A DNA stretch of 57,308 nucleotides. It comes from Alphaproteobacteria bacterium (lineage in GTDB: Bacteria; Pseudomonadota; Alphaproteobacteria; UBA2966; CAIVPW01). The stretch's first letter is position 1. Each line of letters starts with the position of its first letter. Location of the stretch: NCBI GenBank assembly GCA_018658465.1, contig JABHVE010000016.1:1-57308 (forward strand), given 5' to 3'. A program made the translations under genes and the position numbers. Shown here in pieces: positions 2,254-20,093 of the stretch. The notes beneath the pieces are model-generated. The model saw only the letters and a program-made list of their open reading frames with translations. It did not search any database and was not told the origin of the DNA.

Positions 2254-2266
2254 TCCACCACGCTTT

Positions 2267-3148: not shown

Positions 3149-4500
3149 GCGCAATCGGTTCCGCTTCGGGATCCGGCAAATCAATGCGGGATTTTTTGGT
3201 CGCGTTATGGCCCCTGCACCGCACTCTGAACAGTGACGACATGGAACGAGCGCTGGAAATGTGCGGCGAATTCGTCGCAGATTTGGGCGATCAGGTTCAA
3301 TTTCGAATGGAGCGATTCCGACCTGGCGAAGATGTTTATACCTGGTGGATCCCCGAGCGATACAAAGTTAACGAAGCTTGGCTAGAAATCGACGGTGAAC
3401 GCATTGCAGACTTCAAAGACAATCCCCTTCATCTGTTGTCGTATTCCGTACCAACGGTCATCGATGGGCGTCTTGGCGACATGCGTGATCACATTTGGTC
3501 CCGAGAAAAAAACCCTGACGCTATTCCGTGGGAATTCAAATACTACGATCGGTCATGGGGATTTTGTGTACGCCATAATGATCTAATGCGATTCCGTGAC
3601 GACGCAGTCGTAAAGGGCGTAATTGACGTTGAGTTTACCGACGAGGATTTTTGTATCGCAGATATTTTCTTGCCCGGTGAGTCCGATGAAGAAATGCTAT
3701 TTTTGACCAATATCTGCCATCCGATGCAGGTCAACGATTCTATATCCGGATTGGTGGTTGCCCTGGAAATGGTGCGGACACTGGCTGCCCGAAAAGACAG
3801 ACGTTATGGGCTCCGCGTTCTGATTGTCCCTGAAACGATTGGCACGATGGCGTGGCTGTCACGAAACGAGAAAATCGCTGCTCGCGCAAAATTCGCGTGG
3901 TTCTGTGAAATCATTGGTCACGATAATTCTTTCGCCCTGCAGCACTCTCGCCAAGAAACCTCGGCACTTATTGACCGAGCCTTTTTGTCAGTTTTGCGCG
4001 GGCATCGGGTGCACGGCGAAGAGCGAACAGGGGAATTTCGTAAGCTAGTTGCTAGCGATGAGATGATAACGAACGGCCCTGGATGGGACCTGCCGACGCC
4101 CTGCTTGAACCGGTGGCCATATGACGAATATCACACCAGCGATGACAACCCGGATATCATTTCCGAAGAAAATCTTAGTGAAACACTGGATGTCTTTATT
4201 GATCTTTGGGATGCGCTGGAAAAGAATTATTACCCCCGACGCACCTTTATTGGCCCCGTCATGTTATCTCGTTACGGCCTGTGGGTAGATTGGCGCGAAG
4301 ATCGCAGCTTGAATTTGGCAATCGATGACTTAATGTGCCTGCTGGAAGGTGATTTCTCAATCATCGATATCGCCCACCAACTCAGCCTGCCCGCAAGCAC
4401 CGTATTTTTCTACTTGAATCGATTTTTTGAAGCGGGACTGATAGAAAAGAGCCCAACACCGTGGGCGCAACAAGCTAGAACGGTTGGCGAAGAATTCTGA
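3130..4500 (+). CDS. Aminopeptidase-like (M28-like) DUF4910/COG4310 protein with C-terminal winged-helix
   Basis: Carries the EYHTSDDNPD metal-site-like motif typical of M28-like folds and the C-terminal DIAHQLSLPASTVFFYLNRFFEAGLIEK wHTH. An alternative ATG at 3184 (MRDFLVALWPLHRTL) looks like the usual family N-terminus. Confidence 0.6.
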   Translation: MDKTSLSAIGSASGSGKSMRDFLVALWPLHRTLNSDDMERALEMCGEFVADLGDQVQFRMERFRPGEDVYTWWIPERYKVNEAWLEIDGERIADFKDNPLHLLSYSVPTVIDGRLGDMRDHIWSREKNPDAIPWEFKYYDRSWGFCVRHNDLMRFRDDAVVKGVIDVEFTDEDFCIADIFLPGESDEEMLFLTNICHPMQVNDSISGLVVALEMVRTLAARKDRRYGLRVLIVPETIGTMAWLSRNEKIAARAKFAWFCEIIGHDNSFALQHSRQETSALIDRAFLSVLRGHRVHGEERTGEFRKLVASDEMITNGPGWDLPTPCLNRWPYDEYHTSDDNPDIISEENLSETLDVFIDLWDALEKNYYPRRTFIGPVMLSRYGLWVDWREDRSLNLAIDDLMCLLEGDFSIIDIAHQLSLPASTVFFYLNRFFEAGLIEKSPTPWAQQARTVGEEF

Positions 4501-4544
4501 CCGGCGCCGCCTCAGTCTCGTTTTAGATTTTCCGTAGTTTTTCA

Positions 4545-5567
4545 ATGAACTTATCTGCATCAATCAGCAAAGTTTGGTCGATACCCGAACGAATTCGCAA
4601 TCGCGGGAGAGCGCGACTGATGAACGAAATCGGATACCGCCGCATGGGGCTGCCCTTCAAAATGGTTCAATCCGCTATCCGCGGGGTTGGCATCGCTCTT
4701 CACCCATTAAATTATGCGTCTCGAAAGATCGGTAAGTCACAATTTCTAGCCGGCACCGCCCCGAGAAATCGTGTCGATCCCGATCTTGGATATAGGCCAA
4801 TTCCGATTGGGTCCCTGCCAGGGACTGATCGAATTAAGAAAATTTGCCAGCAACTTTACCGGGACGCAAAACCCACTTTGGAATCCCTGGGCGGGCGGTA
4901 TGGAATTAATCTTCTAACTAGCGATTTAGAAGTAGAAACAAGGGGCGAGCTAGATTTAAGAAAATTTCCCGAGCTGTTGGAGTTCGCTGTGAGCGACGAG
5001 GTTTTGGCCACCGTCGTGGACTATCTGGGAGAAATCCCAGTTCTGGCAGGCGTAGAGTTAGTCGTAACAACCCCAATGACTGAAAACGTCGGAAACAATT
5101 TTTACCATTTCGACAAACCATCACCCAAACAGCTTAAATTTTGGATGGCCATCGAGGACGTGGATGCGGGATCTGGTCCGCTAACCTTTCTCCCTGCGGA
5201 CGCGAGCAAGGAGGTCCGCCGAAAAACCGGGCATGTGACCGGTCGCCTGACAGACCAAGAAGTTTATGAAGCCGTGCCGGAATCCCAAAAAATCGAATTT
5301 CTTGGAAAAGCAGGCGAAGGTATGTGGGTGGACACTTGCCGATGCGTTCATTTCGGCAGCCGTACACGTGAACACAATCGTGTTTTGTTGATGCTGTCTT
5401 TTTTCACCAAATTTTGGTGGGCTGAACCCGGTCTGTATTTTAGCCCAACCCAATTCGATAACACACAGTTCAAAAACCACCGAGTGCAACAGCAGGTTTT
5501 GGAATTGATGGTAAACGGCCCCACAACGAACCGGTGGCTTTCCACTGTCGGCAACAAGGCCTCCTAG
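4545..5567 (+). CDS. Putative Fe(II)/2-oxoglutarate-dependent oxygenase (PhyH-like)
   Basis: An HxD motif (NFYHFDKP), then AIEDVDAGSGPLTFLPADAS, then a distal His/Arg (CRCVHFGSRTRE). This spacing is as in phytanoyl-CoA-dioxygenase-like enzymes. Assignment is from motifs only. Confidence 0.45.
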   Translation: MNLSASISKVWSIPERIRNRGRARLMNEIGYRRMGLPFKMVQSAIRGVGIALHPLNYASRKIGKSQFLAGTAPRNRVDPDLGYRPIPIGSLPGTDRIKKICQQLYRDAKPTLESLGGRYGINLLTSDLEVETRGELDLRKFPELLEFAVSDEVLATVVDYLGEIPVLAGVELVVTTPMTENVGNNFYHFDKPSPKQLKFWMAIEDVDAGSGPLTFLPADASKEVRRKTGHVTGRLTDQEVYEAVPESQKIEFLGKAGEGMWVDTCRCVHFGSRTREHNRVLLMLSFFTKFWWAEPGLYFSPTQFDNTQFKNHRVQQQVLELMVNGPTTNRWLSTVGNKAS

Positions 5568-5593
5568 GGCTTGGCCGAACCGAAGGCGCGTTA

Positions 5594-6328
5594 ATGGAAA
5601 AGGTGCTCAAGTGGCTCCGCGGGAGCCACAATTCTGTACGGTACCGCTTTATTGACCACCCACGCCAATGGGTCGAATACGTTCTGCTTTTTCGACTAAG
5701 GGGTAAAACCTGGGTCGATTTTTATGCCCATCGATTGGACCGCCCGGCTCGGGATACAGCCGACGAACCGATCCAAGAAGATTATCTTGAACGAGGCCGT
5801 GATTGGTTTGCGTACATCAAAGATCACGGGTTGCAGCCTGAGCACAAATTTCTTGATTATGGTTGCGGGGTTATGCGGATCGGCGTCCCCGTGATCAATT
5901 ATCTAGATCCTGGAAATTATGTTGGCTTGGATATTTCACCGGCACGCCTTGCTCGGGGTCATCGTCTTGCGGCAGAAAACGGGATCTCCGATGATCGCTA
6001 TCAGACCTTTGTGGTGGGCGATTGCAAATTGCTTGAACTCGGCGACCAGCGATTCGATTTCGTCTGGGCTTCTTCGGTTCTGAACCACATGCCAGACGCC
6101 GATATCTTAGAGATGCTGTCCGCCATGCGCGGACATATTTCGTCTACCGGGCAGTTTTTGTTTCAATACAACATGGGCGAAAAAAACCACCGTATCGGCA
6201 TCAAAGATTTCGTAGTCACTGGCGAAAAAATGCAGCGATGGTGCGAACAGGCGGGTTTCGTTTTTGAAAACCTGCCAAGCCATGATGGGACGTCCTATCA
6301 GTTGGTCCGCCTGACCGTTTCCTCATAA
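5594..6328 (+). CDS. Class I SAM-dependent methyltransferase
   Basis: Motif I is FLDYGCGVMRIG, followed by an acidic motif II (YVGLDIS) and motif IV-like FDFVWASSVLNHM. The track ORF starts at 5534; ATG 5594 (MEKVLKW) lies after the upstream stop. Confidence 0.8.
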   Translation: MEKVLKWLRGSHNSVRYRFIDHPRQWVEYVLLFRLRGKTWVDFYAHRLDRPARDTADEPIQEDYLERGRDWFAYIKDHGLQPEHKFLDYGCGVMRIGVPVINYLDPGNYVGLDISPARLARGHRLAAENGISDDRYQTFVVGDCKLLELGDQRFDFVWASSVLNHMPDADILEMLSAMRGHISSTGQFLFQYNMGEKNHRIGIKDFVVTGEKMQRWCEQAGFVFENLPSHDGTSYQLVRLTVSS

Positions 6329-6423
6329 GCACGGTGAACGGCAAGACCGGGCCATTCAATGGCCCCTAACTCCACACAAAAAAATTTCCAAGACAGACTT
6401 TCTTTAGAGGGTAGAAACACAGC

Positions 6424-7530
6424 GTGCCAACAATAATTATTACGTCAATGGGTGGGGCAGGGAGCAACAATCTTGTCGATACCCTGCGGTTAGTCGATGC
6501 AGACAAATCTAGCGACACAGAGAGGCACACAACGATTGGGACCCATGTTATTCCGATGGAGTTGGCGAAAGGTGAAGCTGATCACCAATATCTTGTTCCC
6601 TCGGCATCGGACGAAGCGGACTATGTTGCAGCCCACAAAAGAATCGCCGCGAAACACGACGCCGATGTCTTAATCGCCAACAGTGATGTGGAAGTCGCTG
6701 TCTGGAGCCGCCACAGGGAGGACATCCCCTGCAAGCACTTGATCCCGGACCCACAGGTTGTGGCCGGGGTCCAGGACAAGTTCGAATTCTCCCAACTATT
6801 GAAAAGACACGGATGCGACACAGTTCCCAATGCACCGATTACATCGATTGATTTGATTCCCGACGCTTTGGCAGAAATTCCCGCGGGCGAAAAATTTTGG
6901 ATCAGACGTCGGGGTGGTAGTGGGTCTGTAGGAGCCACCTGGTTGACCAGTGCCGATCAGGCAAAGAAATGGCTTGAGCTGTGGCAAGAAATGCGTGGAT
7001 TTCAAGCTGATGAATTTGTCGTAGCGCCATTTTTACCCGGTCGCGATTTTTGCGTCGCCACCCTTTGGCAGAACGGCGAATTTGCTGTTGGCAAAATTTA
7101 CGAACGACTGACCTATTGGGGGGCGCAGGGTTCCTTGTCCAGCATGGGATCTTCCCCGGATTGCGCCAGAACAGTCGCCGAGACATGGCCAATTGAGCAG
7201 GCGAAAAAGGCGATCCAAGCGGTATGTTCCGAATTTGGCACCCAGCCCCATGGATTCTACCAAGCAGACCTAAAATGTGCGGACGACAAAACCGCCTTGG
7301 TAACTGAAATCAATATTGGCCGCTTTCCGCAGACTTCCACCCACTTTGATCGGGTTGGGGAGTACAGAATGTTGGAGCTATATCTTCAACTGATCCTTGA
7401 TCCGGGCCAGAATTTGCCCCGGGATGTGCTTGACGTGGTTGCTGATCGATTCGTACTGCGCGGCATCGATATGCCGGTGAAACTCGTTGATAAGGCAACG
7501 CTGGATGCTTTCGAGGAAAATCGGATTTAA
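6424..7530 (+). CDS. ATP-grasp family amide ligase
   Basis: A glycine-rich loop (FWIRRRGGSGSVGATW) plus the late Mg/ATP motif ALVTEINIGRF, which is characteristic of ATP-grasp enzymes. Start is GTG at 6424. Confidence 0.7.
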   Translation: MPTIIITSMGGAGSNNLVDTLRLVDADKSSDTERHTTIGTHVIPMELAKGEADHQYLVPSASDEADYVAAHKRIAAKHDADVLIANSDVEVAVWSRHREDIPCKHLIPDPQVVAGVQDKFEFSQLLKRHGCDTVPNAPITSIDLIPDALAEIPAGEKFWIRRRGGSGSVGATWLTSADQAKKWLELWQEMRGFQADEFVVAPFLPGRDFCVATLWQNGEFAVGKIYERLTYWGAQGSLSSMGSSPDCARTVAETWPIEQAKKAIQAVCSEFGTQPHGFYQADLKCADDKTALVTEINIGRFPQTSTHFDRVGEYRMLELYLQLILDPGQNLPRDVLDVVADRFVLRGIDMPVKLVDKATLDAFEENRI

Positions 7531-8588
7531 TGCAATCAGGGCCACTAAGACTAACGGTCCACCGCCACCAATTTCGACTGCGAAACCCCTATGTCCTGTC
7601 CTTCGCAACTTTGGAACATATCGACACGTTTTACGTGACAGCAGAGCAAAACGGCGCGGTAGGGCACGGGGAGGTCACCCCCCTGCCAGGGTACAGTGAC
7701 GAAAGCGCAGGCTCCGTAATCGCCGCGTTGGAATTCATTGGCAAGAATGAGCCGACGGAGATCACTGAGATCACCGAATCCTTGAGCACAAGGGCACCAA
7801 TCCTGACCAGCGGGATTACTTGCGCCATCGAAACTCTTGACGATCAAGGGGCGTGGAACGGCCTTGAAAAACCAATTCCTTTGGCCGGGCTTTGTGCCGG
7901 CACCGCCCCCGAAGCAGCGGCAGCAGAGGCGCGGGAGCTCTGCAGTCAGGGATACAAAGCCCTGAAAATGAAAATTGGGGCCGATGGACTTGATCAAGAT
8001 CTCCAGCGCGTTCGATCGGTTGCACAGACAATTCCCGGTGGCGTGAATTTAAGCCTCGACGCCAACCAAGCCCTGTCCTTTGACGGGGCGATGAACCTGT
8101 GTGCAGGGATCGGAGATCTTCCTGTGAGTTTTGTTGAACAGCCCTTCGCCCCACAGGCTTGGGATCTCACCGCTGACCTTGCCACCGCCACCTCAGTCCC
8201 AATCATGATGGACGAGTCTATCTGGCATGCCGAGGACATCGCCCGCGCCAGCGCCGTCGGAGCAAAATTCGTAAAACTAAAGCTTTGCAAACATCGCGGA
8301 GCGAAAGACACACTGGCAATGATCGCTCTGGCATCCGACCAGGGCCTAGGCGTTGTGCTTGGTAACGGCGTGCAGTCTTCCCTTGGCAACCATCTTGAGG
8401 CAAAAATTTACGAAACAGCAAATCTATCAACCGCCGGCGAATTCAACGGATTCGCGAAATTCGACAGTCCTTGGATGCCTGACGGAATGTCGGTGGAAAA
8501 TGGCGCGTTGGTAGATGGTGGCATCGACCCGTCCTCGGTGTCCCAGCCCACCGACCAAAAAATTTTCCAAATTGATCTGCCGACCTAG
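7530..8588 (+). CDS. Enolase-superfamily enzyme, MLE subgroup (dipeptide epimerase / N-acylamino-acid racemase-like)
   Basis: KxK motif (YKALKMKIG), three metal ligands (LSLDANQAL, FVEQP, IMMDESI) and a second catalytic Lys (FVKLKLCKHRG). Its ATG shares one nucleotide with the upstream TAA (TAATG, 7528-7532). Confidence 0.85.
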   Translation: MQSGPLRLTVHRHQFRLRNPYVLSFATLEHIDTFYVTAEQNGAVGHGEVTPLPGYSDESAGSVIAALEFIGKNEPTEITEITESLSTRAPILTSGITCAIETLDDQGAWNGLEKPIPLAGLCAGTAPEAAAAEARELCSQGYKALKMKIGADGLDQDLQRVRSVAQTIPGGVNLSLDANQALSFDGAMNLCAGIGDLPVSFVEQPFAPQAWDLTADLATATSVPIMMDESIWHAEDIARASAVGAKFVKLKLCKHRGAKDTLAMIALASDQGLGVVLGNGVQSSLGNHLEAKIYETANLSTAGEFNGFAKFDSPWMPDGMSVENGALVDGGIDPSSVSQPTDQKIFQIDLPT

Positions 8589-8674
8589 CTTCCTTCCTAG
8601 GCCTGGGGCAGTATGGCTCTGGCCCGTTCACCAAATGGCCTCGGCCAAAATTCTCCAATATTGATGGTATTCCT

Positions 8675-10216
8675 ATGAACGCTCCTCTGATCCTTGGTGT
8701 CTCCGCCAGCCTTCGCAATGCCCGTTCCAAGCGTGGCTCAGATGATCTTGTTGGCCAGATTTCCACCCTCGTTGATCGTGAGGCCTTGAACGAATTCATT
8801 GACGAACAAGCCAACATCCATGTTGAGCAATTCCTTGAAGCCGGTCGGTCCGAGGGCCTTCCGTTTGACGAACTCTACCTTCGACTGCGCAAGATGGGCG
8901 GGCATCGAGGCTTATCGAACAGCGAAGTGTGCTTGGCTGCGGCCCTGTGGGCGGCAAAAAACCAAGGCTGCGATATCGAAAATATTGCGTTGCATGACCA
9001 TTTTCCCGCTGATGGAGAGGCGCGGGATTTGGATGACCTGAAAGAGCGGGTCATGCGCGCCGACGGTATTTTGCTTTCATCCCCCGTCTATTTCGGCGAC
9101 CGCAGCTCCCTTAGCCAAAATTTCATTGAACTCCTTCGCGGTGACCCGGAATTACGCGAGGCAATGAAGGCAAAAATCTATGCCGGATTGGCCGTTGGCG
9201 CCAAGCGTAACGGCGGCCAGGAAACCACCCTGATTTACCAGATGTTGGACTTCTTGAATTTGGGAGCCCTGGCGGTCGGCAACGATTCCGAAACGACCTC
9301 CCAATATGGCGGGACCGCCCATGCTGGCGACATCGGAACGGTAGTCGCCGACAAGTATGGCATTGACACAAGCCTGGGCACCGGGCGTCGCATTGCCCGC
9401 GTTGCAAAGCAAATGAAATCAGCGGAAGAAGTGCGGCTGCGGGACAAGCCGATCCTAAATTTTTGGTCTCTCCAGGACAGTGGAGGCCAACTTGGAAAAT
9501 GGATGCAGCCACTTTTGGACAGCGCCAAACCAAACGCCGACATCATCCAATGCGATCTTTTGTCTCAACCAATTCGGCCCTGTTTGGCGTGCGACATTTG
9601 CCCGATCCATGTGGGCCCGGACCAGGAATACCGTTGCATCATCAAGCGCAAATCGGACGGTGTCGTTGCCGCACATCAGGATTTGTTGTCCGGAGACGTC
9701 ATTGTGCCTGCGGTTTTTTCACCCGTAGATCGTCAAGGCCTGGAGACGGCGTATCAGGAATTTATGGAGCGATCGCGGTATTTGCGGCGCGGGGACTATG
9801 TGTTCACAGATCGCCTGGTCGCACCGTTGGTAATCGAAGAAGTTGGGGCAAACGAGAATTTGGACATCCGCCTGATGACGTCCTTTATTCGCCACCACAC
9901 TGTGATGATGAAACCAATTATCGGTTTGATTTACGAAGACAAGCTAATCAATGAAGCTGAAGTGCTCCAAGGGATGGCGGATGCCGTCGCCGCAGGTGCT
10001 AAGCTCGCCGCGGGGCGCCTGGCCATGGCGTCATTGAATGATGAAAGCGTCCGGTACAATCCAGTCGGGTATGTTCTGTCACGAGAAAAAGACAACGACC
10101 CAATCACAATGAATCAGCGCGCCAAATCAAGCGACGAGCGCATGACTCGCTTGGGGGCAGAGGCGAAAACCCGGTTGGAGACCCAGCAACCTGATGAAAA
10201 ATTCATCGCGAGCTAG
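8675..10216 (+). CDS. Tandem flavodoxin-like (NADPH-dependent FMN reductase / iron-sulfur flavoprotein-like) protein, 513 aa
   Basis: The N-half has ILGVSASLRNARS and ADGILLSSPVYFGDRSS, the FMN-reductase signature. The C-half repeats the pattern (ILNFWSLQDSGG ... GDVIVPAVFSPVD) and carries a compact cysteine motif, PCLACDICP...YRC, like Isf-type 4Fe-4S sites. Confidence 0.6.
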   Translation: MNAPLILGVSASLRNARSKRGSDDLVGQISTLVDREALNEFIDEQANIHVEQFLEAGRSEGLPFDELYLRLRKMGGHRGLSNSEVCLAAALWAAKNQGCDIENIALHDHFPADGEARDLDDLKERVMRADGILLSSPVYFGDRSSLSQNFIELLRGDPELREAMKAKIYAGLAVGAKRNGGQETTLIYQMLDFLNLGALAVGNDSETTSQYGGTAHAGDIGTVVADKYGIDTSLGTGRRIARVAKQMKSAEEVRLRDKPILNFWSLQDSGGQLGKWMQPLLDSAKPNADIIQCDLLSQPIRPCLACDICPIHVGPDQEYRCIIKRKSDGVVAAHQDLLSGDVIVPAVFSPVDRQGLETAYQEFMERSRYLRRGDYVFTDRLVAPLVIEEVGANENLDIRLMTSFIRHHTVMMKPIIGLIYEDKLINEAEVLQGMADAVAAGAKLAAGRLAMASLNDESVRYNPVGYVLSREKDNDPITMNQRAKSSDERMTRLGAEAKTRLETQQPDEKFIAS

Positions 10217-10243
10217 GGTAGCCAAAGGTAACTCTCCAAATCT

Positions 10244-12115
10244 ATGAACCCACCCACGACCAATGGTGCGGCAACTTTGCCTTTGCCCGAAGCGGAGTCA
10301 TGGGCAGATATCGAAGTTGTCTACGCCGACTCTCGATCTGCCTTGGAGGCCGCTTGGGCCAAAGGTCTTTCGCGGGAAGCCGAAGTTAGAACATCATCAC
10401 CGGGGCTACTGATGGACCCCGAAATCGATGTGACCGCAACGGACGTGAAATTCCCCCCTGAACGACTAGGCGAATTTTACAGCGAGGTAATCGCGTGGGC
10501 GAAGGCGCTGTATCAGGAAATGGAGGCAAACCCGGATTTGGCAGCCTCAGCTTTAGTCGCAGCGCGCCGCATTTCCAGATTCCAGACTCAGATTTTTAAG
10601 ATCACGACTCTGACCGAAGACGATTTTAATCGACCAGTGGCTGTCTTGACATACGATGTTGATACATTGTTGCCTCGCAGAATTCTGACAACACCCCTGG
10701 CCAGAGTTCTTGAAGGGGCTACCGGTTTTCGCGAATTTAGGCTTCCCGAAAATGTACTATCGTTTGACCGACCATTATTGGGTCCGCCGCCCAGCGTTCG
10801 GGATCGCCTAAAAGTCGCGTCCTGGGCAGCAAAAGTGTATCGGGTGGCTGTTACCTTCTGGGAAAAGGTCCCCGCCGGATCGCCCCGCGGAACGGTGTTG
10901 GTGTTCGGTGAAAATTCCTTGATCAAAGAGACGGCCTACGAATTCGTGAAGGTCGGATACGGATTGCGGAGATTGCAGGCCCCAATCCTTGATCCAAATC
11001 CACCGCCGTCAAAAACGGTTTCGGTCCGAATGAATTGGCTTGGCCCCAAAATAGCGGAAAAATTTGCAACCTGGCTCACACCCTCCGCAGTCGGGCCGGC
11101 GGTAGAGTATTTGCTGTCAGACATCGATAGCTGCGTCTCGCAATTTGACGTTGCCCTGGAACATTGGCAAAAAACTTTGGCGGCCCTAAAAAAATATGAA
11201 CCTCGGTTTTTGATGGTCAATCTTGTTAACAGTCCTCAGGCAGCAGCGTTGTGTGTTGCGGCAAAAGAACAAAATATTCCGGTGATCTGTTTCCAACACG
11301 GGGTAGCCCGAGAATTGGGATTGGTGGGTGATCGGGACGAAGTTTGGTTTGAGACCACGTCGGCTGATATCTTTTTCACGCACACGGACGAGGCCGCAAA
11401 AATCACAAACTCCAGTGGAATCGGAGCGGGCAAATCGATTCCCGTTGGATTGGAACAAGAGTATCGCCGAGCCGGACGGCAGAAACCCACGAACATGTCT
11501 GCACCTCCGATTTGGTACATTTCAACCATGCTCCACATCGGCAACCTGCAGATGGTGAACCGCGGTATGCGCGATCTGGACCAAACAAAATTCGAGGTTC
11601 GCGTCATTGATGACGTACTAGCGAAACTGCCACACCGGGTCTTGCATAAACCCTACCCGTCCAGCCGGTATCCAGATCGTGACCCGGTCATGGCCCATGC
11701 GCGCCAAGCCCCAAACATCGAAGTGTATGACGAAGCCGGTGATCTTCGGTACATGATCCCGAATAGCAAAATCTTGGTCACCGCCCGCACGTCGTCCACC
11801 ACTGCCATGTGCGTCATGTCTGGAAAGCCGGTGGTATACCTTGTGGTCCCCGGTCGACCCCTTAGCCCCGCGGCCCATGAGGCAATGGCGAAGGGAATTT
11901 TCGTATTCGATACCAGAGAGCCGGGAGCGTTTGACGAATTGAGGGAATTTTTATCCCAACCGATCAAAGACATTGAGGCTCAGTGGAGCGAGCGCGCTGG
12001 GGCCCGTGGAGAATTGATCGAGAATTTTTTTGATATTGGGGGTGGCCGGGCCGGTGCCCGTGCAGCAAATATTTTGAAGCAGTCGAAATTCGGTTCGCTG
12101 CTCCCCGATCAATAA
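10244..12115 (+). CDS. Conserved protein of unknown function, paralog A (possible GT-B/TagF/capsule-synthesis-like transferase)
   Basis: A 623-aa ORF that is collinear with the ORF at 22432-24345. By hand count, 46/64 residues are identical across FQHGVARELGLVGDRDEVWFETTSADIFFTHTDEAAKITNSS..., and 32/39 across DIEVVYADSRS...RTSSP. The C-terminal pattern HKPYP...ILVTARTSST...GKPVVYL is reminiscent of GT-B C-domains. Confidence 0.85.
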   Translation: MNPPTTNGAATLPLPEAESWADIEVVYADSRSALEAAWAKGLSREAEVRTSSPGLLMDPEIDVTATDVKFPPERLGEFYSEVIAWAKALYQEMEANPDLAASALVAARRISRFQTQIFKITTLTEDDFNRPVAVLTYDVDTLLPRRILTTPLARVLEGATGFREFRLPENVLSFDRPLLGPPPSVRDRLKVASWAAKVYRVAVTFWEKVPAGSPRGTVLVFGENSLIKETAYEFVKVGYGLRRLQAPILDPNPPPSKTVSVRMNWLGPKIAEKFATWLTPSAVGPAVEYLLSDIDSCVSQFDVALEHWQKTLAALKKYEPRFLMVNLVNSPQAAALCVAAKEQNIPVICFQHGVARELGLVGDRDEVWFETTSADIFFTHTDEAAKITNSSGIGAGKSIPVGLEQEYRRAGRQKPTNMSAPPIWYISTMLHIGNLQMVNRGMRDLDQTKFEVRVIDDVLAKLPHRVLHKPYPSSRYPDRDPVMAHARQAPNIEVYDEAGDLRYMIPNSKILVTARTSSTTAMCVMSGKPVVYLVVPGRPLSPAAHEAMAKGIFVFDTREPGAFDELREFLSQPIKDIEAQWSERAGARGELIENFFDIGGGRAGARAANILKQSKFGSLLPDQ

Positions 12116-12121
12116 TCCACA

Positions 12122-13021
12122 ATGCAGTTGGCCCTTGGCACTGTTCAATTCGGACTGGATTATGGGATTTCCAACAGCCATGGAAAATGCCTCCCCGCCG
12201 AAGCAGAAAAAATTGTCGGACAAGCGATCAAGGCTGGCGTGAGTGTTATCGATACGGCCCCCACGTATGGGGAATCCGAAGAGGTTCTGGGCAAAATACT
12301 CCCCACCGATCATTCTTTTAACATTGTCACGAAAACGCCAAGTTTCGCTGCGGCCTCCTCGCCGCCCATGGCAGCAGATCTGGTCGAAGAAACCCTGATT
12401 AATTCTCTGACTAGACTGAAGTCCGACAAAATCTATGGGATCCTTGTTCATCTTGCTGACGAACTTTTTTCTGACTTGGGTCAGGCTGTGTTCGACCGCC
12501 TTGGCTCTTTGCGTGACCAAGGAATCGTTCGCAAGATCGGTGTTTCCGTATATTCGGCAGAGCATATTGATCGCTTGGTACCAAAATTTCCGATCCAAGT
12601 TGTGCAGGCACCCGTCAACATTTTTGACCAGCGCCTAGTGATCAACGGACAGCTCAATCGGCTAAAGGAATTGGGGATCGAATTTCATGCGCGCTCGATA
12701 TTCTTACAGGGGCTCTTGCTGATGAAACTGAAAAATGATCTGCCAGATCATCTGATACCGCTGGAGCCAGCCTTAGCGCGCTTCCACAAGGACCATGGAG
12801 TGATCGGAATGACCGAGGTAGAAGCCGCCGTTGGGTTTATTTCCCAATTGAGCGAAGTCGATCATGCCGTTGTGGGCGTTACATCTGTGGCGGAATTTGA
12901 CCAAGTCGCTGCCGCTGCCCAGGGCAACTTCGATGTGTCCCTTGAGTGGCCGTCATATGCCGAAACGTCGGATTTTCTGCTTGATCCCAGCCAGTGGCCA
13001 AAACCCAAGTTGAATTCATGA
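12122..13021 (+). CDS. Aldo/keto reductase
   Basis: The N-terminal LGTVQFGLDYG and IDTAPTYGESEEVLG match the AKR signature. Its stop overlaps the next start (ATGA at 13018-13021). Confidence 0.85.
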   Translation: MQLALGTVQFGLDYGISNSHGKCLPAEAEKIVGQAIKAGVSVIDTAPTYGESEEVLGKILPTDHSFNIVTKTPSFAAASSPPMAADLVEETLINSLTRLKSDKIYGILVHLADELFSDLGQAVFDRLGSLRDQGIVRKIGVSVYSAEHIDRLVPKFPIQVVQAPVNIFDQRLVINGQLNRLKELGIEFHARSIFLQGLLLMKLKNDLPDHLIPLEPALARFHKDHGVIGMTEVEAAVGFISQLSEVDHAVVGVTSVAEFDQVAAAAQGNFDVSLEWPSYAETSDFLLDPSQWPKPKLNS

Positions 13022-14013
13022 CCATTCGAATCATGGCCGAGGCCGCCCAAGGGTACGAAGGCAAAATCGAGTACTGCATGACCTATGTCAGCGCCGCGGC
13101 AAAAGCAAACGCCGACGCGGTGAAGTTCCAGATTGTCTATGCCGACGATATTTGCGAGCCCGGCCATGTGCACTATGAGATTTTCAGGTCCCTGGAAATG
13201 CCCACCGAAAATTGGGCGGCGGTAAAAAATTCTGCGGACGAAAAATCCATCCCATTTGTGGCGGAAATTTTTGGCGGGCAAAGTCTGGAAGTCGCTGAAA
13301 TCCTGAAGCCGAACTGGATCAAGATCCATTCCACGGATTTCTTCAATCGCCCGTTGATCAAGCGATCCTTTGAAATAGCCCAGACTGTTTTTGTCTCTGC
13401 CGGTGGCGCCACCGAGGACGAAATCACCAATTTAGTTGATGAGATTTCCAGCTGGGGAAGCGCCAGTCAACTTGTTCTTCTGTACGGCTTTCAGGCGGAG
13501 CCCACCCCGATCGAAAAAAGTGGATTGGCCAAAATTCCCGTTCTGCGGAAACGGTTTCCGGATATTGAATTGGGATATCTAGATCACACAGCAGGTGAGT
13601 CCGAAGATCGCGTCCACGTGTCAGCAATGGCGATGGCACTTGGCGTCCATTGGATTGAGAAACACATCACCCTTAGTCGATTTTTAGAAGTCGAAGATTT
13701 TGTTTCAGCCTTAGAACCAGATGAGTTCGCGAACTACGTGCAGGCAATGCACCGCCTTTCCGGCGCGTTCGGTGCCGCCGACCTTTCCCTTTCCGACGAG
13801 GAAAAGACTTACCGCGACAAAGCCATGAAAAAGGTCTTGGCCGCGAGAGACCTTGTGGCCGGAGACGTCATCTCCGACTCCGACATCAAATTGATAAGAA
13901 CACCGCGTATCGCTCCGGGTTCTGGTCTTCATGACCCAGCACAGATCATCGGTCAGCGCCTTGCCAACAACCATCGGGCCGGCGAAGCGTTCCAGCCGGG
14001 GGATTTTGAATGA
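13018..14013 (+). CDS. Divergent NeuB/SpsE-family nonulosonic-acid synthase-like protein with C-terminal SAF domain
   Basis: IMAEAAQGYEG...ANADAVKFQ aligns with the NeuB IAEIGxNHNG...AVKFQ N-terminus but has a diverged glycine/His motif. DHT and EKH motifs are present. The C-terminal AARDLVAGDVISDSDIKLIRTP is SAF-like. ATG 13018 is preferred over the track start at 12994. Confidence 0.8.
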   Translation: MTIRIMAEAAQGYEGKIEYCMTYVSAAAKANADAVKFQIVYADDICEPGHVHYEIFRSLEMPTENWAAVKNSADEKSIPFVAEIFGGQSLEVAEILKPNWIKIHSTDFFNRPLIKRSFEIAQTVFVSAGGATEDEITNLVDEISSWGSASQLVLLYGFQAEPTPIEKSGLAKIPVLRKRFPDIELGYLDHTAGESEDRVHVSAMAMALGVHWIEKHITLSRFLEVEDFVSALEPDEFANYVQAMHRLSGAFGAADLSLSDEEKTYRDKAMKKVLAARDLVAGDVISDSDIKLIRTPRIAPGSGLHDPAQIIGQRLANNHRAGEAFQPGDFE

Positions 14014-14762
14014 GGAAGCTAGTGGCGGCATTGGCCTGTCGGGCCGGGGGCGCGCGCCTGTACGGAAAGCCACTTCAACGGCTTGGTGGCGAGGTCACGA
14101 TTTTGGATCAGATTTTGGATACCATTGATCAAATTTCATGCATCGAAACTTCCGTATTGGGTATTTCTGAAGGCAAAGAAAATGCGGTGTTCGCCGACAT
14201 TGCCGACACCCGCGGAATTGCCCACATATTTGGTGACCAACGGGACGTCTTAATGCGACTGATCCAGTGTGGGCGCGCAGCCGGTGCCACCGATGTATTC
14301 CGAATCACCACTGAATGTCCGTTTCTTTGGTTCGAAAGGGTTGATTTTGCGTGGGCAGAACATGTCGAAAACAAGAATGACATCACCGTCACAGACGGGG
14401 CACCCGAAGGGATCAACTTCGAAATCTATTCCATGGATGCGCTGATGAAATGCCACGAACAGGGGGATGATCGGCATCGCAGTGAATATTGCTCGTTGTA
14501 TGCTCGGGAGCATATGGATGATTTCCGCGTGAAAGTTATTAGGCCAGACCCCGAGCTTGATCGGTTGGATATCCGCCTGACGGTCGACAACCCCGAAGAT
14601 TTAGTGGTGTGCCGCGCTGTGTTCAAAGAATTCAAGGATCAAGCCCCATTGATCCCCGCAGCAAGCATTATTCAATTTCTCGATGATCAGCCTAAATTGA
14701 AGGATCTTATCGCGGCCTATGTGGATCCGATTCGCATTTGGCCAGATGGGAACGTTGCATGA
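14010..14762 (+). CDS. SpsF/CMP-sugar-synthetase-like cytidylyltransferase
   Basis: The N-terminal VAALACRAGGARLYGKPLQ is the acylneuraminate cytidylyltransferase-like (CTP_transf_3) signature. It is ATGA-coupled to the synthase gene. Confidence 0.7.
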   Translation: MRKLVAALACRAGGARLYGKPLQRLGGEVTILDQILDTIDQISCIETSVLGISEGKENAVFADIADTRGIAHIFGDQRDVLMRLIQCGRAAGATDVFRITTECPFLWFERVDFAWAEHVENKNDITVTDGAPEGINFEIYSMDALMKCHEQGDDRHRSEYCSLYAREHMDDFRVKVIRPDPELDRLDIRLTVDNPEDLVVCRAVFKEFKDQAPLIPAASIIQFLDDQPKLKDLIAAYVDPIRIWPDGNVA

Positions 14763-16537
14763 CCGGACAACCTAAAAATTCCGATCCCCACCTCGGTAGC
14801 AGCGGCATTGTATTCCTCCGAAAAGCGATTCGAGAGGACCCCATCCGAACCGGGATCATTGTTTTTCTTCTTGTTTTGGCTGGGATAGCAGAAGGAATGG
14901 GGTTCGCTACCGTGCTACCAATCATTTCGGTCGCAAGCGATGGCGGCCTTGGTGATTCCAAACTTGAGAAGTTTGTCAGCAGCGGGCTTGGGGTTTTTGG
15001 TGCTTCACCGACTGTCGGCGCTCTGCTTGTTGTCTTTTTACTGGGAATAATATTGAAAGCGTCGCTTACCCTGCTTGCGATGCGTCATGTTGGGTACACC
15101 GTCGCGCGGATCGCCACAAATTTGCGCCTGGATTTGATCAGATCCGTCATGTCGGCGAATTGGATTTACTATGTGAACCGACCCGTTGGCACGTTTTCCA
15201 ACGCAGTTACGATTGAATCCATGCGATCGGGCCAGCTGTATTCGGCAGCTTACAAAATGTCGTCTGCGGCGTTTCAATCGCTGATCTATATCGGAATTTC
15301 ACTGATGATGTCTTGGCAGATCACAGTGGCCGCAGTCGTTGTTGGGGCCGTGATGTTTTCGTCCATGCGATTTTTGGTAAGAATAGCGCGGCGAGCCGGC
15401 GATGCTCAGGCAATCCACTTCGAAACAATGGTGGTTCGCCTGACGGACGCGCTGTCAGGAATTAAGCCGCTAAAAGCGATGGGATGGGAAGGCCGTCTTC
15501 TTCCCCTGCTGGAGCGCCAGGCCAACAGCCTAAATCTTGCTCTGCGCCGCCAGATAATTAGTGCCGAGGCGATGCGGAATTTGCAGGAGCCAATCATTGC
15601 AATTTTTCTAAGTTTGGGCTTGTTTGTCGCGCTCTCTGTTTTGACTTTGGAGACAACAATCGTTTTTGCAATGGCGGTAATATTTTACCGGACAGTTTCC
15701 AAGGCGGCGGCTGTCCAATTGACGTTCCAAGCAATGGCATCAAACCAGCAGTTTTATGCCAACATCCAAGACAAAATCGATCAGGCCCGACACGCCCAAG
15801 AACGGATCACTGGGGGTCTTGCTCCAAGATTTTCCGACAGCATCACGATCGAGGATGTGCGCTTTTCGTACGGCGAGCACATCGTCCTTGACGGGGTCAG
15901 TTTTGAAATACCATTCGGAACAATCACTACGATTCGCGGCACCTCAGGATCCGGAAAAACGACGTTGGCTGATTTGGTCACGGGATTACTGACCCCAGAC
16001 CAGGGAAAAATTCTCATCGACGGGAAATCTCTTGGCGAAATGGATCTCGCCCAATGGAGAAGTCAAATTGGCTACGTTCCTCAGGAACTATCCCTTCTGC
16101 ATGAAAGCATCCTGACTAATGTCACGTTGACCGATCCTGAATTGTCTAGGGAGGATGCCGAACGGGCTTTGAAAGTCGCCGGCGCTTGGGAATTTGTTTC
16201 ATCGCTTCCTGACGGAATGGACACGATTGCCGGGGAACGCGGCACGCGAATTTCAGGAGGGCAGCGGCAAAGGATAGCTATCGCCCGAGCCCTGGTTCGA
16301 CATCCAAGACTTCTCATCCTCGATGAGGCAACCACCGCGTTGGATCCGGAAACCGAAGCCTCCATTTGCAAAGCGGTGAAACGGTTGTCCACCGATACGG
16401 CTATCCTCGCCATTTCTCACCAGGAGGCGCTTACTGAAATCGCCGACACCCTTTATACCCTCGACCGTGGTGTTGCCACTTTGGTGCGCAAAAACACACC
16501 CGCCAAGCCAAGCCCCCAATCACATGCCGCAAGCTAG
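14759..16537 (+). CDS. Fused TMD-NBD ABC exporter (MsbA/type IV exporter-like)
   Basis: A hydrophobic N-terminal half, then Walker A GTSGSGKTTL, signature ISGGQRQRIAIARAL and Walker B LLILDEATTALD. ATG 14759 overlaps the upstream TGA (ATGA). The track ORF starts at 14738. Confidence 0.9.
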   Translation: MTGQPKNSDPHLGSSGIVFLRKAIREDPIRTGIIVFLLVLAGIAEGMGFATVLPIISVASDGGLGDSKLEKFVSSGLGVFGASPTVGALLVVFLLGIILKASLTLLAMRHVGYTVARIATNLRLDLIRSVMSANWIYYVNRPVGTFSNAVTIESMRSGQLYSAAYKMSSAAFQSLIYIGISLMMSWQITVAAVVVGAVMFSSMRFLVRIARRAGDAQAIHFETMVVRLTDALSGIKPLKAMGWEGRLLPLLERQANSLNLALRRQIISAEAMRNLQEPIIAIFLSLGLFVALSVLTLETTIVFAMAVIFYRTVSKAAAVQLTFQAMASNQQFYANIQDKIDQARHAQERITGGLAPRFSDSITIEDVRFSYGEHIVLDGVSFEIPFGTITTIRGTSGSGKTTLADLVTGLLTPDQGKILIDGKSLGEMDLAQWRSQIGYVPQELSLLHESILTNVTLTDPELSREDAERALKVAGAWEFVSSLPDGMDTIAGERGTRISGGQRQRIAIARALVRHPRLLILDEATTALDPETEASICKAVKRLSTDTAILAISHQEALTEIADTLYTLDRGVATLVRKNTPAKPSPQSHAAS

Positions 16538-17252: not shown

Positions 17253-19046
17253 TTGAATATTTTAGGAATTTCCGCGCTGTACCACGACAGCGCCGCAGCC
17301 TTGGTCCGCGACGGTAAGGTCCTCGCGGCCGCCCAGGAAGAACGATTTACCCGTATCAAAGGGGATCCAGATTTCCCAAAGAATGCGATCGAATATTGCC
17401 TGGATGCTGGCGAAATTTCCTTGGATCAAATCGACTTTGTGGCGTTCTACGACAAACCGCTTCTGACCTTTGATCGGCTCCTTGAAACGTATTTGGCGTT
17501 CGCCCCCAAAGGGTTGAAATCGCTGGTGAAGGCGATGCCGATTTGGATCAAGGAAAAGCTGTTCCTGGCCAGCGACATTCATAAGCGATTGACTAGTCTT
17601 GATCGTGGAGAAATCCCAAAGGACAAGTTGCTTTTCGGATATCACCACCATTCCCATGCAGCGAGCGCCTTTTATCCCTCCCCCTTTGATGAAGCAGCTG
17701 TCTTGGTGATGGACGGGGTTGGAGAATGGGCAACGTCAACTCTCGGCCACGGCAATGGTCAATCCTTACAGTTGCTGAAAGAGATCAAGTTTCCGCATTC
17801 CTTGGGGCTTTTGTATTCCGCCTTCACGTACTATCTGGGTTTCAAGGTCAACGAAGGTGAATACAAAATCATGGGCTTGGCACCCTATGGGGAGCCAAAA
17901 TACGCCGACATGATCCTTGAAAATTTGATCGATTTGAAAGCGGATGGGTCGTTCCACTTGGACATGCAATATTTTGATTATTGCATCGGCCTGACCATGA
18001 CCAACGATCGGTTCGACCGGTTGTTCGGTGCCCCACCCAGGAAGCCCGGCGCCGCCCTGGACCAGCGGGACATGGATCTGGCGCGGTCCGTCCAAGTTGT
18101 GACCGAAAAAATAGTTTTGCGCCTGTGCGAAACCTTGCACAAAGAAACCGGATCAAAAAATCTGTGTATGGCCGGTGGCGTCGCTTTGAACTGTGTGGCG
18201 AACGGCCGCATTGTTCGCGACGGCCCGTTTGAAAATGTTTGGATCCAACCAGCGGCCGGCGATGCCGGCGGCGCACTGGGTGTGGCCTTGGCCGTCGATG
18301 CGATTCATACCGAAAGGGAACACGCCACAAAGCCCCCTGGTGATACGATGGATGGAGCACTGCTGGGCCCGGAGTATTCACAGTCAGATATTCACCAGGC
18401 CCTGAATGCAGCAGGTGCGGTGTACCATGATTTAGATGACCGCGATTTGTTCGACACCGTGGCCACCGCGTTGGCCGATGAGAAAATTGTTGGGTGGCAC
18501 CAGGGGCGAATGGAATTTGGCCCGCGGGCCCTTGGAAACAGATCGATCCTCGGCGACCCAAGATCCTCGAACATGCAACGGATGTTGAATATGAAAATAA
18601 AATACCGGGAAAGCTTTCGCCCTTTTGCCCCGGCTATTTTACGCGACAAAGTTAGCGAATATTTCGAACTGGACGAAGACAGCCCGTACATGTTGCTGGT
18701 CGCTGGTGTTCAGGAAGATCGAAGGATCGCAGACCAAGTGAACGGCGAAGATTTAAAAGGCATCGCTAAGCTTAACGCTATTCGCAGCGACATCCCGGCC
18801 GTAACACATGTGGATTATTCCGCCCGTGTTCAGACCGTCGACGGTGAAGCCAATCCGCGTTTTCATAAGCTTATTGATGCGTTCTATGCCAAAACTGGCT
18901 GCCCAGTGTTGGTCAACACCAGCTTCAACATTCGCGACGAGCCTATCGTGTGCACGCCCCAGGACTCCTTTAATTGTTTCCTGGGAACGGAAATGGACGT
19001 CCTGGTGATTGGCAATTCGGTCCTACATAAAGCTGAGCAATGGTAA
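17253..19046 (+). CDS. Carbamoyltransferase (NodU/CmcH family)
   Basis: The N-terminus ILGISALYHDSAAALVRDGKVLAAAQEERFTRIKGD and the later NTSFNIRDEPIVCTP are hallmarks of the NodU/CmcH family. Start is TTG at 17253. Confidence 0.9.
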   Translation: MNILGISALYHDSAAALVRDGKVLAAAQEERFTRIKGDPDFPKNAIEYCLDAGEISLDQIDFVAFYDKPLLTFDRLLETYLAFAPKGLKSLVKAMPIWIKEKLFLASDIHKRLTSLDRGEIPKDKLLFGYHHHSHAASAFYPSPFDEAAVLVMDGVGEWATSTLGHGNGQSLQLLKEIKFPHSLGLLYSAFTYYLGFKVNEGEYKIMGLAPYGEPKYADMILENLIDLKADGSFHLDMQYFDYCIGLTMTNDRFDRLFGAPPRKPGAALDQRDMDLARSVQVVTEKIVLRLCETLHKETGSKNLCMAGGVALNCVANGRIVRDGPFENVWIQPAAGDAGGALGVALAVDAIHTEREHATKPPGDTMDGALLGPEYSQSDIHQALNAAGAVYHDLDDRDLFDTVATALADEKIVGWHQGRMEFGPRALGNRSILGDPRSSNMQRMLNMKIKYRESFRPFAPAILRDKVSEYFELDEDSPYMLLVAGVQEDRRIADQVNGEDLKGIAKLNAIRSDIPAVTHVDYSARVQTVDGEANPRFHKLIDAFYAKTGCPVLVNTSFNIRDEPIVCTPQDSFNCFLGTEMDVLVIGNSVLHKAEQW

Positions 19047-20050
19047 CACAACCCCCAATTTCAGATAAGATTCTCCCGGCGTTGAAAGCCCCCGGTGCAG
19101 GAAATGATACGGATCTAGAATTGATCGATGGTGGCTTGCAATGCGTCCAAACCGGAGAGACATTTATGGATGCCAACGGGGTCCCTTCCTTGTTCGCTCC
19201 AACCGACCCGAATGCCGATCAAACGGATGTAACAACACGCATCAAATCGTTTTATGAAGAATATCCCTTTCCAAATTACGACGGACTTCAGGAGTTCGGC
19301 GACCTTGTGAATTTGGGATATTCCAGCCAATTTTCAAAAGATCTTCTTCGGGCAATTGGATCAAAAAAACTGATTTTAGAATGCGGATGTGGGACCGGGC
19401 AGCTTTCTCATTTTCTTCAGCTAAACAATAATCAGGTCCTGGGGATCGATATGTCATTGGGAAGCCTGGGCCTTGCCGTGGAGCACAAGCAGCGCAATCA
19501 ATTGGCGCGCAGCAGCTTTGCCCAAATGAATATTTTTTCCTTGGCCGTCAAGGACGAGTCCATGGATGTGGTCATTTCCCATGGGGTGCTTCACCACACC
19601 TTTGATGCCCGCCGGGCTTTTATGCAAATCATTAAAAAGGTAAAGCCTGGTGGGATCGTTGTGGTTGGTCTTTACAACTCGATTTCGCGAATTCCCACAT
19701 GGGTCCGATCAAAATTTATCAACGTTTTGGGAAGCAATATTGATTACGTCGTGCGTAACCACTTTCGCGATGCTCGGAAGGCCGATATTTGGGTCAAGGA
19801 TCAGTATTTCAACCCCCATGAAACATGGCATTCCATCGACGAGGTCATGGATTGGTTCAAGGAAGGCGGCATCGAATACCGCAACTGTCGACCGGCGATC
19901 ATGGGAACGAATGGCGAAGATTTGCCGGGAATGTTCGACAAATCCCTACCCGGGTCAAAATACCAACGAATTGTGACACAGCTTTCTTGGCTAACGTCTA
20001 TTGCCCGAGAAGGCACCCTTTTCGATGTGATTGGAAGAAAGCCCGAATGA
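19040..20050 (+). CDS. Class I SAM-dependent methyltransferase
   Basis: Motif I is ILECGCGTGQLSHFL, with post-I LGIDMS and VISHGVLHHT. It overlaps the carbamoyltransferase stop by 7 nt. Confidence 0.8.
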   Translation: MVTQPPISDKILPALKAPGAGNDTDLELIDGGLQCVQTGETFMDANGVPSLFAPTDPNADQTDVTTRIKSFYEEYPFPNYDGLQEFGDLVNLGYSSQFSKDLLRAIGSKKLILECGCGTGQLSHFLQLNNNQVLGIDMSLGSLGLAVEHKQRNQLARSSFAQMNIFSLAVKDESMDVVISHGVLHHTFDARRAFMQIIKKVKPGGIVVVGLYNSISRIPTWVRSKFINVLGSNIDYVVRNHFRDARKADIWVKDQYFNPHETWHSIDEVMDWFKEGGIEYRNCRPAIMGTNGEDLPGMFDKSLPGSKYQRIVTQLSWLTSIAREGTLFDVIGRKPE

Positions 20051-20093
20051 TTTCCGGATCATCAAGAATTATTGAACCTGCGAGGCATTTGAA

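Follow-up and report, generated by a model that had tools for sequence, protein, structure and literature searches.

Two diverged paralogs in an alphaproteobacterial operon as candidate CMP-nonulosonate transferases of a large uncurated GT-B family

What do two long and mutually similar proteins contribute to an operon that appears to be devoted to the synthesis and decoration of a nonulosonic acid (NulO)? The question is raised by a stretch of 57,308 nucleotides from an alphaproteobacterium (contig JABHVE010000016.1 of assembly GCA_018658465.1; the whole of this stretch is hereafter called the window), in which two open reading frames, ORF A and ORF B, encode the proteins in question (Table 1). 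Pseudaminic (Pse), legionaminic (Leg) and related nine-carbon acids decorate the capsules, lipopolysaccharides, flagella and surface (S-) layers of many bacteria and affect immune recognition. Knowledge of the cognate NulO transferases is scarce (PMC5420450). A first-pass annotation of the window had regarded the two proteins as a paralog pair of no named family and as the best local candidates for a NulO transferase or polymerase. We lean, at slightly better than an even chance, towards the interpretation that both are CMP-NulO:glycan transferases of GT-B fold, members of a large family that has so far escaped curation.

The relationship between the two proteins is plain. BLASTP aligns them almost end to end, collinear as described in the first-pass annotation, with 316 of 596 residues identical (53%), 72% positives, no gaps and E = 0, a similarity far beyond chance. 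Two blocks that had been counted by hand required correction: DIEVVYADSRS...RTSSP proved to be 28/32 rather than 32/39 identical, and FQHGV...RRAG 46/62 rather than 46/64; the C-terminal strings quoted along with them are present in ORF A (HKPYP at residue 468, ILVTARTSST at 510 and GKPVVYL at 527). The longest reading frame at the second copy (22432-24345, +) begins with GTG and encodes 637 aa. The database version of the protein (P0003) has 620 aa, a length consistent with initiation at TTG 22483, where the start codon and the TGA stop of the upstream gene overlap as TTGA. At the nucleotide level identity amounts to 58%, with 68% at codon positions 1 and 2 and 38% at position 3, and 178 of the 316 residues identical between the proteins use different codons. 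Synonymous sites near saturation, combined with a gapless protein identity of this order, point to an ancient duplication whose protein products have stayed under selection, much as had been supposed.

A scan with the family profile hidden Markov model (HMM) finds exactly two copies in the window. In a small tree the pair falls into separate clades, and the three clades concerned are about equidistant (ORF A with P0002, ORF B with P0004, and P0006 with P0005); the closer relative of ORF A elsewhere is P0002 (54% identity), that of ORF B is P0004 (87%). Divergence between the copies is distributed unevenly: the C-terminal domain with its terminal helices retains 60% identity and the core around a Q-H-G motif 58%, against 45-47% in the N-terminal extension and insertion, where stretches drop to 30-35%. 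This regional pattern would fit a common donor and diverged recognition of the acceptor.

To which family do the proteins belong? The absence of a named one is borne out: no Pfam match is better than E = 0.06, NCBIfam returns sub-threshold matches alone, and neither single-sequence nor profile searches find a relevant sequence in the PDB. The family is unnamed and without a curated model, yet it is not rare. When 1.84 billion representatives were searched exhaustively with a HMMER profile, 713 clusters matched at E <= 1e-3, 323 of them reaching E <= 1e-30, and nearly all among the 150 matches listed are 600-640 aa long and aligned over almost the whole profile. A word-indexed homolog search had yielded just 6-7 relatives; the orphan status that it suggested is rejected as a sensitivity artefact. 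Orphan status in fast searches can badly mislead for families at 25-35% identity. One match in genome contigs, from Streptomyces (L002), was discarded as spurious, lying in an alternative frame of high-GC sequence.

An alignment of 71 family sequences, used both for conservation and for structure prediction, leaves H352, G402, K469, Y471, P529 and R588 invariant and Q351, G353, E357, E370, D444, E451, P472, R475, D478, P481, D500, S518 and T519 nearly invariant. The family can be recognized by the strings F-Q-H-G-x-x-R-E, [YF]-K-[PTSA]-Y-P-x-x-R-Y-x-D-x-D-P and S-R-A-T-S-T.

The fold in which these residues are set was approached by searching an AlphaFold model with Foldseek, a check that the first-pass annotation had proposed. 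An earlier AlphaFold (AF2) model from 6 sequences was poor, with a predicted local distance difference test score (pLDDT) of 65, and was replaced by one from the 71-sequence alignment, which reaches a pLDDT of 93.5 and a predicted template-modelling score of 0.92. All 50 matches listed by Foldseek against the PDB are GT-B proteins (probability 1.0, E 1e-8 to 4e-6), at 10-16% identity and with a target-normalised template-modelling (TM) score of up to ~0.6; they include UDP-GlcNAc 2-epimerases (NeuC and the epimerase domain of GNE), the glycosyltransferase family 1 (GT1) enzyme CalG3 and plant UGTs, the GT4 enzyme BshA, and MurG. On the strength of the model, the assignment to the GT-B fold, in which two Rossmann-like alpha/beta domains enclose a cleft and a C-terminal helix returns to the N-domain, can be considered secure, without any close solved structure. 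The predicted C-terminal Rossmann domain is canonical and spans residues ~420-570, with K-x-Y-P ending its second strand and S518-T519 starting the helix after its fourth. The N-terminal half of ~400 residues would comprise an extension (1-216) and a long helical insertion (259-318), and Q-H-G is placed at the end of the strand 347-350. The C-terminal half had been likened to GT-B, TagF and capsule-synthesis enzymes; the first part of this comparison holds, given the model and the uniformly GT-B matches, and the part concerning TagF and capsule synthesis comes down to motifs without significant similarity.

A metagenome collection was scanned with a degenerate DNA pattern for [YF]K[PT]YPxxR[YF]xDxDP, which returned 52 loci, and the family HMM confirms a genuine member in 52/52. 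Neighbours were counted wherever 4 kb or more of flank was available, as was the case for 29 loci: NeuB in 18, CTP_transf_3 in 14, DegT/PseC in 11, a PseH-like GNAT in 9, an AsnB-like gene in 8 and PseB in 6, with at least one core NulO gene, meaning NeuB, CTP_transf_3, DegT/PseC or PseB, in 25/29. Every recognised neighbour lies on the strand of the family member, and NeuB is often directly adjacent. On the question raised in the first-pass annotation, the family thus does travel with NeuB-like and cytidylyltransferase genes. One relative, P0007 (L003/L004), sits inside a textbook Pse-type cluster, in which PseB-like and DegT/PseC-like genes are accompanied by the series NeuB, family member and CTP_transf_3, and another, P0006, is surrounded on a 100-kb contig by the same module as ORF A. 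FkbH, WbuX, DltB-like, PhyH-like and methyltransferase genes also occur nearby. Annotation of the neighbours at the 52 loci brought up no Maf, Capsule_synth or NeuC-like gene and two GT4 singletons only, and the family provides the only recurrent gene of transferase fold besides PseG. A second copy was not seen within the stored flank of any of the 52 other loci, which makes the in-operon pair unusual for the family.

In 9-10 loci the family occurs together with PseG-like (Glyco_tran_28_C) genes, many of which are fusions with a PseH-like GNAT, and separate genes of this kind are found in L013, L021, L025, L030, L032, L033, L034, L050 and L059. In one population (L020:2-2992, +; L037:855-3962, -) the family member itself carries, as an in-frame N-terminal fusion, a PseH-like GNAT domain of ~160 aa, and the sequence is identical in contigs from two samples.

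Such tight embedding among biosynthetic genes invites another explanation, namely that the proteins are GT-B-fold enzymes of NulO biosynthesis rather than transferases, comparable to PseG, LegG or NeuC and acting, for instance, as a nucleotide-sugar hydrolase or as a hydrolysing 2-epimerase. The best Foldseek matches are after all UDP-GlcNAc 2-epimerases, the fusion to a PseH-like GNAT recalls the PseG-PseH fusions of the same loci, and the window shows no PseG or NeuC. We nevertheless consider this improbable. Where canonical PseG-like genes coexist with the family it does not take the place of PseG, and a role as replacement PseG is rejected on this ground. Membership among the UDP-GlcNAc 2-epimerases (Epimerase_2; NeuC/LegG) finds no more than a generic likeness of fold; Pfam gives no match and a profile-profile comparison of the family with E. 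coli NeuC by hhalign is not significant (probability 0.5%). The proteins, at ~620 aa, are also about twice as long as PseG or NeuC. A diverged pair within one operon is easier to reconcile with two acceptors than with a single pathway step, and the sequence similarities of the family point to transferases.

These similarities concern two NCBIfam models. Residues 466-613 of ORF A match positions 223-362 of 365 in NF046086, the BFO_1060 family (E 8e-7), with 28.5 bits against a cutoff of 200, and 2 of the 71 relatives match as well. Residues 307-532 are collinear with positions 287-506 of 585 in TIGR04331, the LIC12162 family transferase model (E 4e-4 to 5e-4), with 18.8-19.4 bits against a cutoff of 225, and 15 of the 71 relatives give similar weak matches. 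Scores so far below the curated cutoffs indicate related families, not membership. TIGR04331 is named after a gene of the O-antigen locus of Leptospira interrogans, and we know of no experimental characterisation of the LIC12162 family itself. A gene of this family has been reported beside neuABC genes (PMC6679464). BFO_1060 is an orthologue of Tannerella forsythia Tanf_01245 and TFUB4_00887, and when either gene is deleted the O-glycan loses its terminal Pse or Leg derivative (PMC5420450). The Tannerella transferases share a conserved C-terminal region with HP and D/E-D/E-G motifs, for which binding of the CMP donor has been proposed (PMC5420450).

Could the proteins instead be GT-B glycosyltransferases with an ordinary nucleoside diphosphate (NDP) sugar as donor, building the acceptor or primer sugar, the nonulosonic acid being added by some unrecognised protein? 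The NDP-sugar enzymes of GT1, GT4 and GT28 among the top Foldseek matches would agree with this, as would the absence of literal HP and D/E-D/E-G motifs from the family and the presence, in some loci, of a glucose-1-phosphate cytidylyltransferase or other sugar genes. The possibility appears unlikely to us, given that most loci have, besides PseG, no recurrent gene of glycosyltransferase fold other than the family member, leaving nothing else to transfer the NulO, and that the only curated families it resembles in sequence are linked to NulO transfer. The GT4-type E-x7-E signature and the Pfam models of GT4 and GT1 give no match either.

How does the window itself compare with this picture? 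ORF A follows the preceding gene after 27 nt and precedes the next by 6 nt, and the following genes overlap one another; both copies therefore lie in one long same-strand gene array (34 to 26062). A scan of positions 8000-27000 for promoters and terminators gave consensus counts equal to shuffle expectation, so the inference of an operon rests on gene spacing and overlaps. Immediately downstream of ORF A come an aldo/keto reductase, a divergent NeuB-family ulosonic-acid synthase, a cytidylyltransferase-like protein and an ATP-binding cassette (ABC) protein, and ORF B is reached after a further set of tailoring genes (Table 1). The NeuB-like synthase scores 155 bits with the NCBIfam model NeuB (cutoff 400) and 136 bits with PseI (cutoff 340). 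The cytidylyltransferase-like protein is linked by phmmer to the CTP_transf_3 domains of other family members' neighbours, at E 1e-10 to 1e-17. The aldo/keto reductase recurs beside family members that have NeuB and a cytidylyltransferase (L003, L011, L015, L022, L023 and the P0006 contig). The ABC protein is the probable flippase or exporter of a lipid-linked product, and the P0006 contig and L033 each have its counterpart after the module. The upstream genes are syntenic with the P0006 contig and partly with L003. Apart from the pair, the only glycosyltransferases found in the window are two GT4 genes, in agreement with the first-pass annotation.

Table 1. Features of the window discussed in the text
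Feature	Position	Strand	Description	Basis
ORF A	10244..12115	+	623 aa, ATG start; member of the uncurated ~600-aa GT-B family	ORF call, translation, family HMM 724 bits
ORF B	22483..24345	+	620 aa from TTG 22483; paralog of ORF A	BLASTP; family HMM 706 bits
NAT, DltA-like AMP-binding enzyme, 91-aa carrier protein, formyltransferase, DUF4910, PhyH-like protein	within 34..10216	+	upstream tailoring genes	Pfam, NCBIfam
Methyltransferase, ATP-grasp, enolase-superfamily protein, FMN_red-like protein	within 34..10216	+	upstream tailoring genes	Pfam, NCBIfam
Tailoring module with carrier protein	500-4500	+	DltA-like enzyme, then carrier protein, formyltransferase-like, DUF4910
Carrier protein	1978-2253	+	91 aa, DSFGFLD serine motif
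FMN_red-like protein	8675-10216	+	513 aa; FMN_red domain covers residues 75-203 only
Aldo/keto reductase	12122..13021	+	6 nt after ORF A	Pfam Aldo_ket_red, E 2e-29
NeuB-like synthase	12994..14013	+	divergent NeuB-family ulosonic-acid synthase, NeuB + SAF domains	Pfam NeuB, E 2e-38
Cytidylyltransferase-like protein	14010..14762	+	probable CMP-sugar synthetase	Pfam CTP_transf_3, E 0.0015, below cutoff
ABC exporter	14738..16537	+	fused transmembrane and nucleotide-binding domains, MsbA/PglK type	Pfam ABC_membrane + ABC_tran
Two small predicted membrane ORFs	16663-17226	+	128 and 50 aa; annotated by no search
Carbamoyltransferase, methyltransferase, GDSL/SGNH protein, FemAB-like GNAT	17253..22486	+	between ORF A and ORF B	Pfam
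Carbamoyltransferase gene alone	17253-19046	+
GNAT + formyltransferase fusion	24419..26062	+	downstream of ORF B	Pfam
GT4 gene	28913-30067	+
GT4 gene	34500-35657	-
Group-4-capsule-like export block with sulfate-activation genes CysNC and CysD	31719-41524	-	beside the NulO operon
YjbH	35668-38517	-	export block
Poly_export/SLBB/GfcC-like protein	38507-41524	-	1005 aa; export block
DNA methyltransferase, N6_N4_Mtase + RAMA, with MutY-like glycosylase	54039-56200		adjacent genes; methyltransferase looks CcrM-like

Several parts of the window deserve mention on their own account. The carrier-containing genes at its beginning make up a module with those for the Antibiotic_NAT and the aldo/keto reductase. 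This module is conserved in L003/L004 and on the P0006 contig and probably serves the N-acyl tailoring of the sugar. The FMN_red-like protein lies immediately upstream of the family gene both in the window and in the P0006 relative (L001 and the 100-kb contig). Two small predicted membrane ORFs directly precede the carbamoyltransferase gene. The export block beside the operon adjoins the sulfate-activation genes CysNC and CysD, and similar genes recur beside family members elsewhere: YjbH, SLBB and YjbF near L044, CysNC in L026, and PAPS_reduct among the neighbour ORFs. The NulO glycan may accordingly be sulfated and leave the cell by a route of the YjbH/SLBB type. Towards the far end, the DNA methyltransferase, the MutY-like glycosylase and the nearby ETF-QO and SLT transglycosylase genes mark the locus as chromosomal; the methyltransferase looks CcrM-like, a trait that would point to an alphaproteobacterial source. 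A tblastn search of plasmids gave no match.

The presence of export genes bears on the possibility that the two proteins are a CMP-NulO polymerase pair, one initiating and the other extending, or the two alternating linkages, in the production of a poly-nonulosonate capsule that would resemble polysialic acid and leave the cell through the YjbH/Wza-like machinery. Two paralogs in one operon would suit such a scheme, the ABC exporter and the YjbH/SLBB/GfcC genes alongside would serve it (with their counterparts beside the family member in L044), and the spacing of the motifs is like that of the GT38 polysialyltransferase NeuS. In our estimate its chances are slim. There is no sign of processivity and no significant similarity to NeuS, most organisms appear to manage with one copy, as judged from the stored flanks, and the ABC protein is a fused half-transporter of the MsbA/PglK type, not KpsMT. 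Of the role that the first-pass annotation had assigned to the pair, the transferase part thus gains support from the NulO neighbours and from the weak homology to genetically proven Pse and Leg transferases, and nothing specific was found for the polymerase part.

The same surroundings speak against transfer to protein. Pse and Leg clusters often serve flagellin glycosylation, and one could imagine NulO transferases that glycosylate flagellin, pilin or S-layer protein in the manner of Maf and FlmG, the latter being a two-part GT-B enzyme of Alphaproteobacteria; the N-terminal extension of ~215 aa might then be a protein-binding module. No flagellar genes are present in the window or among the annotated neighbours of the 52 loci, however, and the context is that of an exporter and polysaccharide export genes, which renders a protein acceptor highly improbable. 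Membership in Maf/PseE (MAF_flag10, DUF115) is rejected, with no MAF_flag10 match in Pfam and a GT-B fold; membership in FlmG, in which tetratricopeptide (TPR) repeats precede the GT-B part, is rejected on domains rather than on comparison with the FlmG sequence, Pfam giving no TPR match at E <= 1 and the N-terminal part being modelled as alpha/beta. None of the families considered claims the proteins beyond the GT-B fold.

If the pair are CMP-NulO:glycan transferases, which residues might carry out the reaction? The motifs D/E-D/E-G and HP are common to the sialyltransferases of GT38, GT52 and GT80 (Freiberger et al., PMC2169525); the acidic residue of the former is essential, and the His of the latter contacts the CMP phosphate (PMC2169525). 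For comparison we used NeuS, KpsS, KpsC and NeuC of the kps-neu locus of E. coli UTI89 (L062). ORF A has IPVICFQHGVAR in its N-domain and, at a spacing of 119 aa, VLHKPYP in its C-domain. The corresponding motifs are SLIEEGTG and FIKPHP in NeuS, 123 aa apart, IRLEDGFVR and WVKVHP in the N-terminal domain of KpsC (127 aa), and WRMEDGFLR and VYKPHP in its C-terminal domain (128 aa). Local, non-significant hhalign alignments place YKPYP of the family on YKPHP of KpsC and KHHP of KpsS, SRATST on TINSTAG of KpsS, and FQHGVxR on FEEGYLR of KpsS. We infer, from motif context and secondary-structure position rather than from a significant alignment or a superposition, that the family may have the same active-site layout with His in place of the acidic residue and Tyr in place of His.

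Under this hypothesis, ORF A and ORF B would be soluble, cytoplasmic enzymes. The NeuB-like synthase and the cytidylyltransferase-like enzyme would make a CMP-activated nonulosonic acid, of Pse type or a related ulosonic acid, which the acyl-, methyl-, formyl- and carbamoyl-transfer genes of the operon would decorate. Each paralog would bind the CMP-sugar in its C-terminal Rossmann domain, while its N-terminal half would hold the growing glycan, probably linked to a lipid, on a hydroxyl of which the sugar is placed, and the MsbA/PglK-like ABC protein next door would then export the product. K469-x-Y471-P472, S518-T519 and R475/R588 would contact the CMP phosphate, being placed like the K-x-H-P and S-S/T of sialyltransferases, and H352 of Q-H-G-x-x-R might act as the base, in the position of D/E-D/E-G in sialyl- and Kdo-transferases. 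Since the donor half has been kept (~60% identity) and the N-terminal extension and insertions have diverged (30-47%), the two copies most likely serve two different acceptors or linkages.

A number of observations weigh against this interpretation. Neither motif of the sialyltransferases is literally present: the family has [Q/E]-H-G with an invariant H352, at a presumptively equivalent position, instead of D/E-D/E-G, and, instead of HP, K-x-Y-P, in which K469 and Y471 never vary and P472 hardly does. The family profile has no significant hhalign similarity to E. coli NeuS (probability 0.1%), nor to KpsC, KpsS or an alignment of 22 KpsS sequences (0.5-1.5%), and the NCBIfam matches are, as stated, far below their cutoffs. 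The best structural matches are UDP-GlcNAc 2-epimerases and NDP-sugar enzymes of GT1 and GT4, not sialyltransferases, with none above a TM-score of ~0.6. From the neighbourhood association one cannot tell whether the proteins use the sugar, as transferases, or take part in its synthesis. Finally, no PseB, PseC, PseG or NeuC gene is visible in the window, where the NeuB and cytidylyltransferase are both divergent; this may mean that a non-canonical ulosonic acid is made, or that the genes for the precursor are situated before the start of the window.

The family as delimited here comprises at least 700 clusters that lack a Pfam or NCBIfam model, with a confident GT-B model and the signature Q-H-G / K-x-Y-P. 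Should the proposed activity prove true, hundreds of 'hypothetical proteins' would receive a family-level annotation, candidate enzymes would become available for the chemoenzymatic synthesis of Pse/Leg glycoconjugates, and nature would have provided an experiment in swapping the catalytic residues of a sialyltransferase-like GT-B scaffold, to which the pair of ORF A and ORF B adds a built-in comparison of acceptor specificity. A broader scenario, which we advance tentatively and at somewhat less than an even chance, is that of a new CMP-nonulosonate transferase family at the level of the CAZy classification, the main non-flagellar Pse/Leg-type transferase of environmental bacteria, with an active site re-wired in comparison with all bacterial sialyl- and Kdo-transferases known so far (invariant His for acid, invariant Tyr for His). 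The pair in the window would then build a heavily N-acylated, carbamoylated and possibly sulfated NulO glycan, flipped by the PglK-like ABC protein and exported via an outer-membrane route of the Gfc/Yjb type.

How, then, does the family stand among known systems? The Tannerella transferases offer a parallel in genomic position, their genes lying just downstream of those for NulO biosynthesis as the family genes adjoin NulO genes; they differ in size (~445 against ~620 aa) and in having literal HP and D/E-D/E-G motifs where the family has Y-P, Q-H-G and a large N-terminal extension. TIGR04331 is closer in dimensions, a model of 585 positions against ~600-620 aa, and its match covers the catalytic core. 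The UDP-GlcNAc 2-epimerases NeuC, GNE and WecB provide the top Foldseek matches (E 1e-8 to 1e-7), some of them being enzymes that take part in making sialic acid; identity is 12-16%, TM-scores do not exceed ~0.6, and the family protein is twice their size. KpsC and KpsS, beta-Kdo transferases, act with retention and use Asp as the nucleophile. They belong to Capsule_synth (PF05159, GT107), for which Pfam gives no match at E <= 1, and have a different N-terminal architecture; the use of CMP-activated ulosonic acids, established there, is predicted for the family. With the sialyltransferases of GT38, GT52 and GT80, such as NeuS and PmST1, the family has in common the GT-B fold, an [acid/His]-G motif at the end of an N-domain strand, K-x-[H/Y]-P at the end of a C-domain strand about 120 aa further on and an S-T pair after the fourth C-domain strand; it differs from them in that no sialyltransferase appears among the top 50 structural matches and in the lack of significant sequence or profile similarity.

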